Shown here: in pieces, positions 1 through 285 of the stretch
Layout of the letters: every line of letters starts with the position of its first letter
Position numbering within the stretch: position 1 is the stretch's first letter
Sequence record: AF419421.1
Source: a phage
Strand: one strand, 5' to 3'
DNA: 285 nt
Translations under genes and position numbers: made by a program
The notes under the pieces: model-generated
Seen by the model: the letters and a program-made list of their open reading frames with translations, nothing else
Told to the model about the DNA's origin: nothing
Databases searched by the model: none

Positions 1-285
1 ATGGCTATGTCTAACATGACTTACAACAACGTTTTCGACCACGCTTACGAAATGCTGAAAGAAAACATTCGTTATGATGACATCTGTGACACTGATGATC
101 TGCACGATGCTATTCACATGGCTGCCGATAATGCAGTTCCGCACTACTACGCTGACATCTTTAGCGTAATGGCAAGTGAGGGCATTGACCTTGAGTTCGA
201 AGACTCTGGTCTGGTGCCTGACACCAAGGACGTAATCCGCATCCTGCAAGCGCGTATCTATGAGCAATTAACGATTGACCTCTGG
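1..285 (+). CDS. ocr: Ocr (gene 0.3) DNA-mimic anti-restriction protein of a T7-like phage, inhibitor of type I restriction-modification enzymes; 3'-partial CDS (codons 1-95 of an expected ~117; stop codon beyond window)
   Basis: Seen in sequence: ATG at 1-3 followed by 95 sense codons with no in-frame stop; both other + frames hit stops within the first 20 nt (TGA at 17-19 in frame 2, TAA at 9-11 in frame 3). The translation is strongly acidic (20 Asp/Glu versus 5 Lys/Arg in 95 residues). Codon choice is E. coli high-expression style (His always CAC, Leu mostly CTG, Arg CGT/CGC). Established knowledge: the translated sequence matches, from memory, T7 gp0.3 Ocr almost residue-for-residue from Met1 to the ...EQLTIDLW motif that precedes the acidic C-terminal tail. 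The match was recalled, not computed, so exact identity is not quantified. Confidence 0.93.

Follow-up and report, generated by a model that had tools for sequence, protein, structure and literature searches.

Which gene does this stretch of phage DNA carry, and does the encoded protein most likely still work as its known counterparts do? The whole stretch of 285 nucleotides that was analyzed is called the window throughout. A sequence-only reading had assigned it to gene 0.3 of phage T7, which encodes the anti-restriction DNA mimic Ocr. This assignment stood for codons 1–95. The gene is, however, incomplete in the window (95 of 117 codons), and the allele is not that of the reference, as it carries the substitutions R29C and M72V; the sequence-only reading had noted neither point. 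The features of the window are collected in Table 1.

Table 1. Positions of the gene, its differences from T7 and its interface residues in the window.
Feature	Position	Strand	Remark
Gene 0.3 (ocr), codons 1–95	1..285	+	5' part of the 117-codon CDS (T7 V01146 925–1278); the frame stays open to position 285
ATG start codon of gene 0.3	1..3	+	Base 1 of the window corresponds to T7 position 925, where the annotated CDS begins
C69T, silent, Ile23 ATC->ATT	69	+	Comparison with T7; natural polymorphism
R29C, codon 29 TGT (C85T)	85..87	+	Comparison with T7
C99T, silent, Asp33 GAC->GAT	99	+	Comparison with T7
Phe54, codon 54 TTT	160..162	+	Dimer and AriA-interface residue, unchanged
M72V, codon 72 GTG (A214G)	214..216	+	Comparison with T7
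Leu82, codon 82 CTG	244..246	+	Dimer and AriA-interface residue, unchanged

Translation of the window in frame +1 gave a peptide of 95 amino acids without any stop from position 1 to 285, while only 0.46% of base shuffles left this frame open. The peptide aligned with T7 Ocr (PDB 1S7Z and 2y7c_D) with residues 1–95 on residues 1–95, and 93 of the 95 positions were found identical (E = 7e-59). Nine further PDB entries of the T7 gene 0.3 protein, beyond 1s7z and 2y7c, were also matched. Using the Pfam profile PF08684 (“DNA mimic ocr”), for which the gathering score is 25 bits, a match of 194.6 bits was obtained that covered profile positions 1–93 of 101. The translation had been recognized as T7 Ocr from the letters alone, and these values bear that out. 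The near-full-length match of high identity to T7 gp0.3 and its crystal structure, which had been proposed as a check, was found with 1S7Z, with all 95 residues aligned end to end. At the DNA level, the window aligned gap-free with positions 925–1209 of T7 (V01146) with 281 of 285 bases identical (98.6%), and T7 genomes were the best matches. A total of 178 phage records showed a DNA match, 176 of them covering at least 80% of the query, and all DNA matches were phage sequences. Searching 5.8 billion protein clusters, 228 relatives were identified, and PF08684 was present in 120 of 120 among the matches listed.

Taking these comparisons together, the window very probably represents the first 285 bases of gene 0.3 of T7 or of a very close relative and would code for Ocr. 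The high confidence placed in this reading takes in a functional Ocr, which we infer, and an intact gene in its phage context, which we assume. As a counter-defence gene, ocr is already known; the window carries the archetype of the family, and its allelic difference is trivial. The sequence-only reading had likewise called the system known and not novel. The only new item is the previously undeposited allele with R29C and M72V.

The last base of the window completes codon 95 of the 117 codons. T7 has 22 codons more, namely codons 96–117 (EDAEDLLNEYLEEVEEYEEDEE), and these, which form the acidic tail, lie beyond the window end together with the stop. The 95 codons of the window contain almost all of the functional core, because Ocr99, a protein without the last 17 residues, was reported to be fully active and to inhibit EcoKI (PMC3439906). 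This also bears on the possibility that ocr is truncated or disrupted just past the window, as a pseudogene or deletion variant without full-length Ocr, which we consider highly improbable. The location of the last 22 codons and the stop outside the window would leave room for such a defect, and many evolved T7 genomes carry early-region deletions (37.1–38.9 kb versus 39.9 kb). Nevertheless, the start is intact, neither a frameshift nor a stop interrupts the 95 codons, and the deposited T7 lines, among the matches listed, all continue into the normal gene after these 285 bases. Moreover, even a protein ending at residue 99 is active, as outlined above for Ocr99.

The composition of the peptide was in line with the assignment. 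It contains 14 Asp and 6 Glu, corresponding to 20 acidic residues of 95 (21.05%), and 5 Lys or Arg. The net charge (K+R-D-E) of the 95 residues was -15. The values given beforehand, about 21% Asp/Glu and a net charge of roughly -15 over 95 residues, were exact, and the strongly acidic composition with few basic residues that is expected of Ocr is present in the peptide. The same residues of reference T7 carry a net charge of -14, the difference of one being caused by R29C. For full-length T7 Ocr, 29% acidic residues and a net charge of -28 were calculated, with 14 of its 34 acidic residues located in the acidic tail formed by the last 22 codons.

An AF2 model of the peptide was built with 29 homologues and reached a pLDDT of 81.7, with helices at residues 8–26, 31–45, 50–58, and 76–94. 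The all-helical Ocr fold is accordingly a feature of the predicted model. When the model was compared with the PDB using Foldseek, only Ocr chains matched (TM 0.77–0.84, E ≤ 5e-9; next best match at E = 2); this fold match is not independent evidence, since 1S7Z was very probably part of the AF2 training data. Both strands of the window were also searched for other elements. Rfam gave no match at E ≤ 1, and a promoter and terminator scan gave no site. Two out-of-frame open reading frames of 31 amino acids each (74–169 on the plus strand and 147–242 on the minus strand) were dismissed as being of chance size.

The window might have another origin than the early region of a phage, namely an ocr copy that was cloned, made synthetically or taken from a library, such as an expression construct or a mutant library. 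It starts exactly at the ATG without flanking sequence, the allele has an exact match in no deposited phage, and cloned copies of ocr are common, with pAR2993 and pBAD-Ocr as examples (PMC3439906, PMC7261183). We nevertheless regard such an origin as unlikely. Megablast of the window gave no match among 72,556 plasmid records, nor did it give one in 5,426 complete E. coli genomes, whereas all DNA matches, 178 of 178, were phage records. Furthermore, the silent C69T occurs naturally as a polymorphism among related phages, and the boundary at the gene start may simply reflect how the window was cut, by gene coordinates or to a fixed length from the gene start.

Comparing the window with T7, four transitions became visible, C69T, C85T, C99T, and A214G, two of them silent and two missense. 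The T at position 69 was also found in Teseptimavirus PDP351P2 and in Salmonella phage 3A_8767, while C99T was absent from both of these relatives. For the search with short queries, megablast was designed with a variant base inside every 28-mer seed. The query 57–112 matched three phage records, representing two phages, and only the silent C69T was common to them. The query 190–238, which contains M72V, yielded zero matches in phage records. C85T, C99T, and A214G did not occur in this sequence context in the collections searched, and the combination of all four changes was absent from the phage, plasmid, E. coli genome, viral, metagenome, and genome contig collections. Exact patterns across the variants were likewise found neither in viral_contigs (two patterns) nor in metagenome_contigs or genome_contigs. 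As the exact allele is present in no collection, no tested or sequenced phage vouches for its activity.

Silent and missense codon changes were found at a ratio of 2:2 in the window, versus 13:3 and 18:3 in the natural relatives (Fisher p = 0.16). The ratio of 2:2 is weaker evidence of purifying selection, and the difference from the relatives is not significant. All four changes are transitions, three of them C->T on the coding strand, while in the relatives most differences from T7 are silent. This pattern might hint at a mutagenized or laboratory-evolved line, but the sample is far too small. A mutagenesis signature based on 4 of 4 transitions and the 2:2 ratio was dropped as a candidate explanation because of the few changes and the Fisher p-value of 0.16. 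An engineered labelling mutant, suggested by the lone cysteine, was dropped as well, since Cys was found in 56 of 120 homologues (among the matches listed) and the allele also contains silent changes.

These differences raise the question of whether the same gene is present in a form in which R29C and/or M72V alter or reduce function by affecting folding, target binding or the range of defences, as in a laboratory-mutagenized or experimentally evolved T7 line or in a defence-escape variant. Three of the four changes occur, among the sequences searched, in the window alone, and the transitions with their C->T bias on the coding strand would be compatible with chemical or PCR mutagenesis, even though four transitions are too small a sample for diagnosing it. 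Half of the changes are missense, in contrast to the mostly silent differences of natural relatives, and R29C takes away one of the few basic residues. A loss or change of function was nonetheless judged improbable. Among the 120 cluster representatives listed of 228, column 29 contained R 95 times, D 13 times, T 7 times, and C, Q, and K once each. Column 72 contained M 92 times, I 25 times, V twice, and T once. Both positions therefore vary naturally, and both window residues, C at 29 and V at 72, occur in natural proteins. In the AF2 model, position 29 falls into the predicted loop 27–30 between helices A and B (8–26 and 31–45), and position 72 into the predicted loop 59–75 before the last helix, a block of low pLDDT. 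In an alignment of 30 sequences, the window matched all of the 19 invariant columns. The structural and mutational literature searched contained no mention of residues 29 and 72 (28 and 71 in mature numbering) as contact or interface residues of Ocr. Mentions of R28 in that literature concern AriB.

The residues that are known to matter are unchanged. Phe54 is nearly invariant in the Ocr family, and Leu82 is conserved in 97% of the 120 cluster representatives listed. With A58 also unchanged in the window, the hydrophobic dimer-interface set of F54, A58, and L82 appears complete from the sequence. The importance of this set is documented by mutants: F54V escapes PARIS (PMC9122126), F54D/A58E impairs the dimerization of Ocr (PMC7261183), and L82R renders Ocr monomeric and escapes PARIS (PMC10802264). 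None of the changes known to permit escape from PARIS (F54V, L82R, frameshifts, and nonsense mutations) was present in the window, which argues against a defence-escape variant. H48, Y49, Y50, and Q83, described as BrxX contacts of Ocr (PMC11317158), were found unchanged in the window as well. Ocr further tolerates the replacement of several acidic residues at once, as the variants Mut1, Mut2, and Mut4, with five or six acidic residues neutralized, still inhibited EcoKI (PMC3439906). R29C and M72V probably do not matter for function. The allele most likely encodes a functional Ocr, because both changes affect variable positions in predicted loops and the invariant, interface, and contact residues within the window are intact.

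A positive effect of the two substitutions was also considered. The pair R29C/M72V would then be adaptive, selected in nature or during laboratory evolution, and would alter the interaction of Ocr with host defence. Such an allele may evade an Ocr-sensing system or may bind a particular methyltransferase of an R-M or BREX system more tightly, and the route may be the removal of a basic residue from the A-B loop together with a reshaped loop before the last helix. We regard this as very unlikely and return to the reading of a functional Ocr of the known type.

How does this Ocr relate to its family and to other DNA mimics? T7 Ocr shares with the window the start codon, the frame, the predicted four-helix fold, the acidic composition, and F54/A58/L82; over residues 1–95 it differs by R29, M72, and two silent sites. 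In T7 (V01146), gene 0.3 is the first CDS after the E. coli promoters A1, A2, and A3 and is followed by genes 0.4, 0.5, 0.6, and 0.7. The same order was found in Salmonella phage 3A_8767, with an ocr-like gene, small open reading frames, and then a Ser/Thr kinase. Such an early-region position ahead of small open reading frames and a Ser/Thr kinase is shared by ocr homologues of other Teseptimavirus and Autographiviridae phages. For the window, the early-region position proposed by the sequence-only reading is putative, the gene order being that of its nearest relatives. The Ocr homologues of PDP351P2, 3A_8767, Yersinia phage phiA1122, and Salmonella phage SP6 belong to the same PF08684 family as the window. 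At the DNA level, PDP351P2 and 3A_8767 are farther from the window than T7, with 262 and 257 of 285 nucleotides identical. The clusters of Ocr homologues showed 57–97% amino acid identity to the window among the matches listed.

Several observations were made on the matching records themselves. Some of the records and proteins MZ375235/MZ375236, MH382198, P0003, and P0057 label ocr as “protein kinase” or “receptor binding protein kinase,” and many T7 records name it “hypothetical protein.” These labels are apparent annotation slips for a well-characterized gene. One of the matching records carries the name of an Enterococcus phage; this host is unexpected, T7-like ocr being otherwise confined to phages of Enterobacterales. 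The Ocr homologues P0006 (Yersinia phage phiA1122, 140 amino acids) and P0073 (158 amino acids) are notably longer than the family median of 118 amino acids, and P0006 has an additional precomputed Pfam match, PF27024. For both proteins, the extra length may come from an N-terminal extension or from a start that was called wrongly. Many T7 records (MZ375246–MZ375263) have a length of 37.1–38.9 kb versus 39.9 kb, with the ocr match at 905–907 versus 925. This shift of 18–20 bases points to small deletions in the DNA upstream of gene 0.3 in these lines, which are evolved or engineered.

None of the other anti-restriction proteins considered, ArdA, Arn, and the SAM hydrolase of T3, was found among the Pfam, PDB or fold matches of the window. 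The folds and sequences of ArdA, T4 Arn, and the T3 gene 0.3 SAM hydrolase are unrelated to those of Ocr. In the T3 genome, gene 0.3 takes up the slot that gene 0.3 has in T7. ArdA and T4 Arn resemble Ocr in that they imitate DNA to block type I R-M (cited in PMC7261183, PMC9122126). ArdA and Arn were reported not to shut off BREX, whereas Ocr does so (Isaev et al., PMC7261183).

The action of Ocr is well established, and that of the allele in the window would follow the known scheme. Gene 0.3 is the first class I gene, transcribed by the host RNA polymerase during genome entry. The small, very acidic, and all-helical product dimerizes via a hydrophobic face that includes F54, A58, and L82. 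Each monomer mimics about one turn of B-DNA, and the dimer imitates approximately 20–24 bp of bent B-DNA in both shape and charge. In this form Ocr takes up the groove meant for DNA in type I R-M enzymes and in BrxX/PglX, the methyltransferase of BREX; it also binds the host RNA polymerase. AriA, the sensor of the PARIS abortive-infection system, recognizes Ocr via the same hydrophobic face. That Ocr blocks type I R-M enzymes and BREX and triggers PARIS had been stated in advance of this analysis, and the literature and structures agree on all three points. The complexes concern type I R-M enzymes (PDB 2y7c, 7bst/7btp, 7eew; PMC3439906), BREX BrxX/PglX (PDB 8q56, 9ex7, 8zek; PMC7261183, PMC11317158), and AriA of PARIS (PDB 8v45; PMC9122126, PMC10802264). 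The interaction with RNA polymerase is likewise described (PDB 6r9b/6r9g; PMC7064336). Judged from its sequence, the present allele would retain R-M and BREX inhibition and the triggering of PARIS, activities that are documented for wild-type T7 Ocr.

The importance of the window goes little beyond correct annotation, as Ocr is the textbook DNA-mimic counter-defence protein. Only a shift in which defences it inhibits, or is sensed by, would lend the R29C/M72V allele modest interest. The recognition of Ocr marks the source of the DNA as T7, a near-identical relative, or a gene 0.3 clone, and the phage is predicted to resist type I R-M and BREX and to be sensitive to PARIS.
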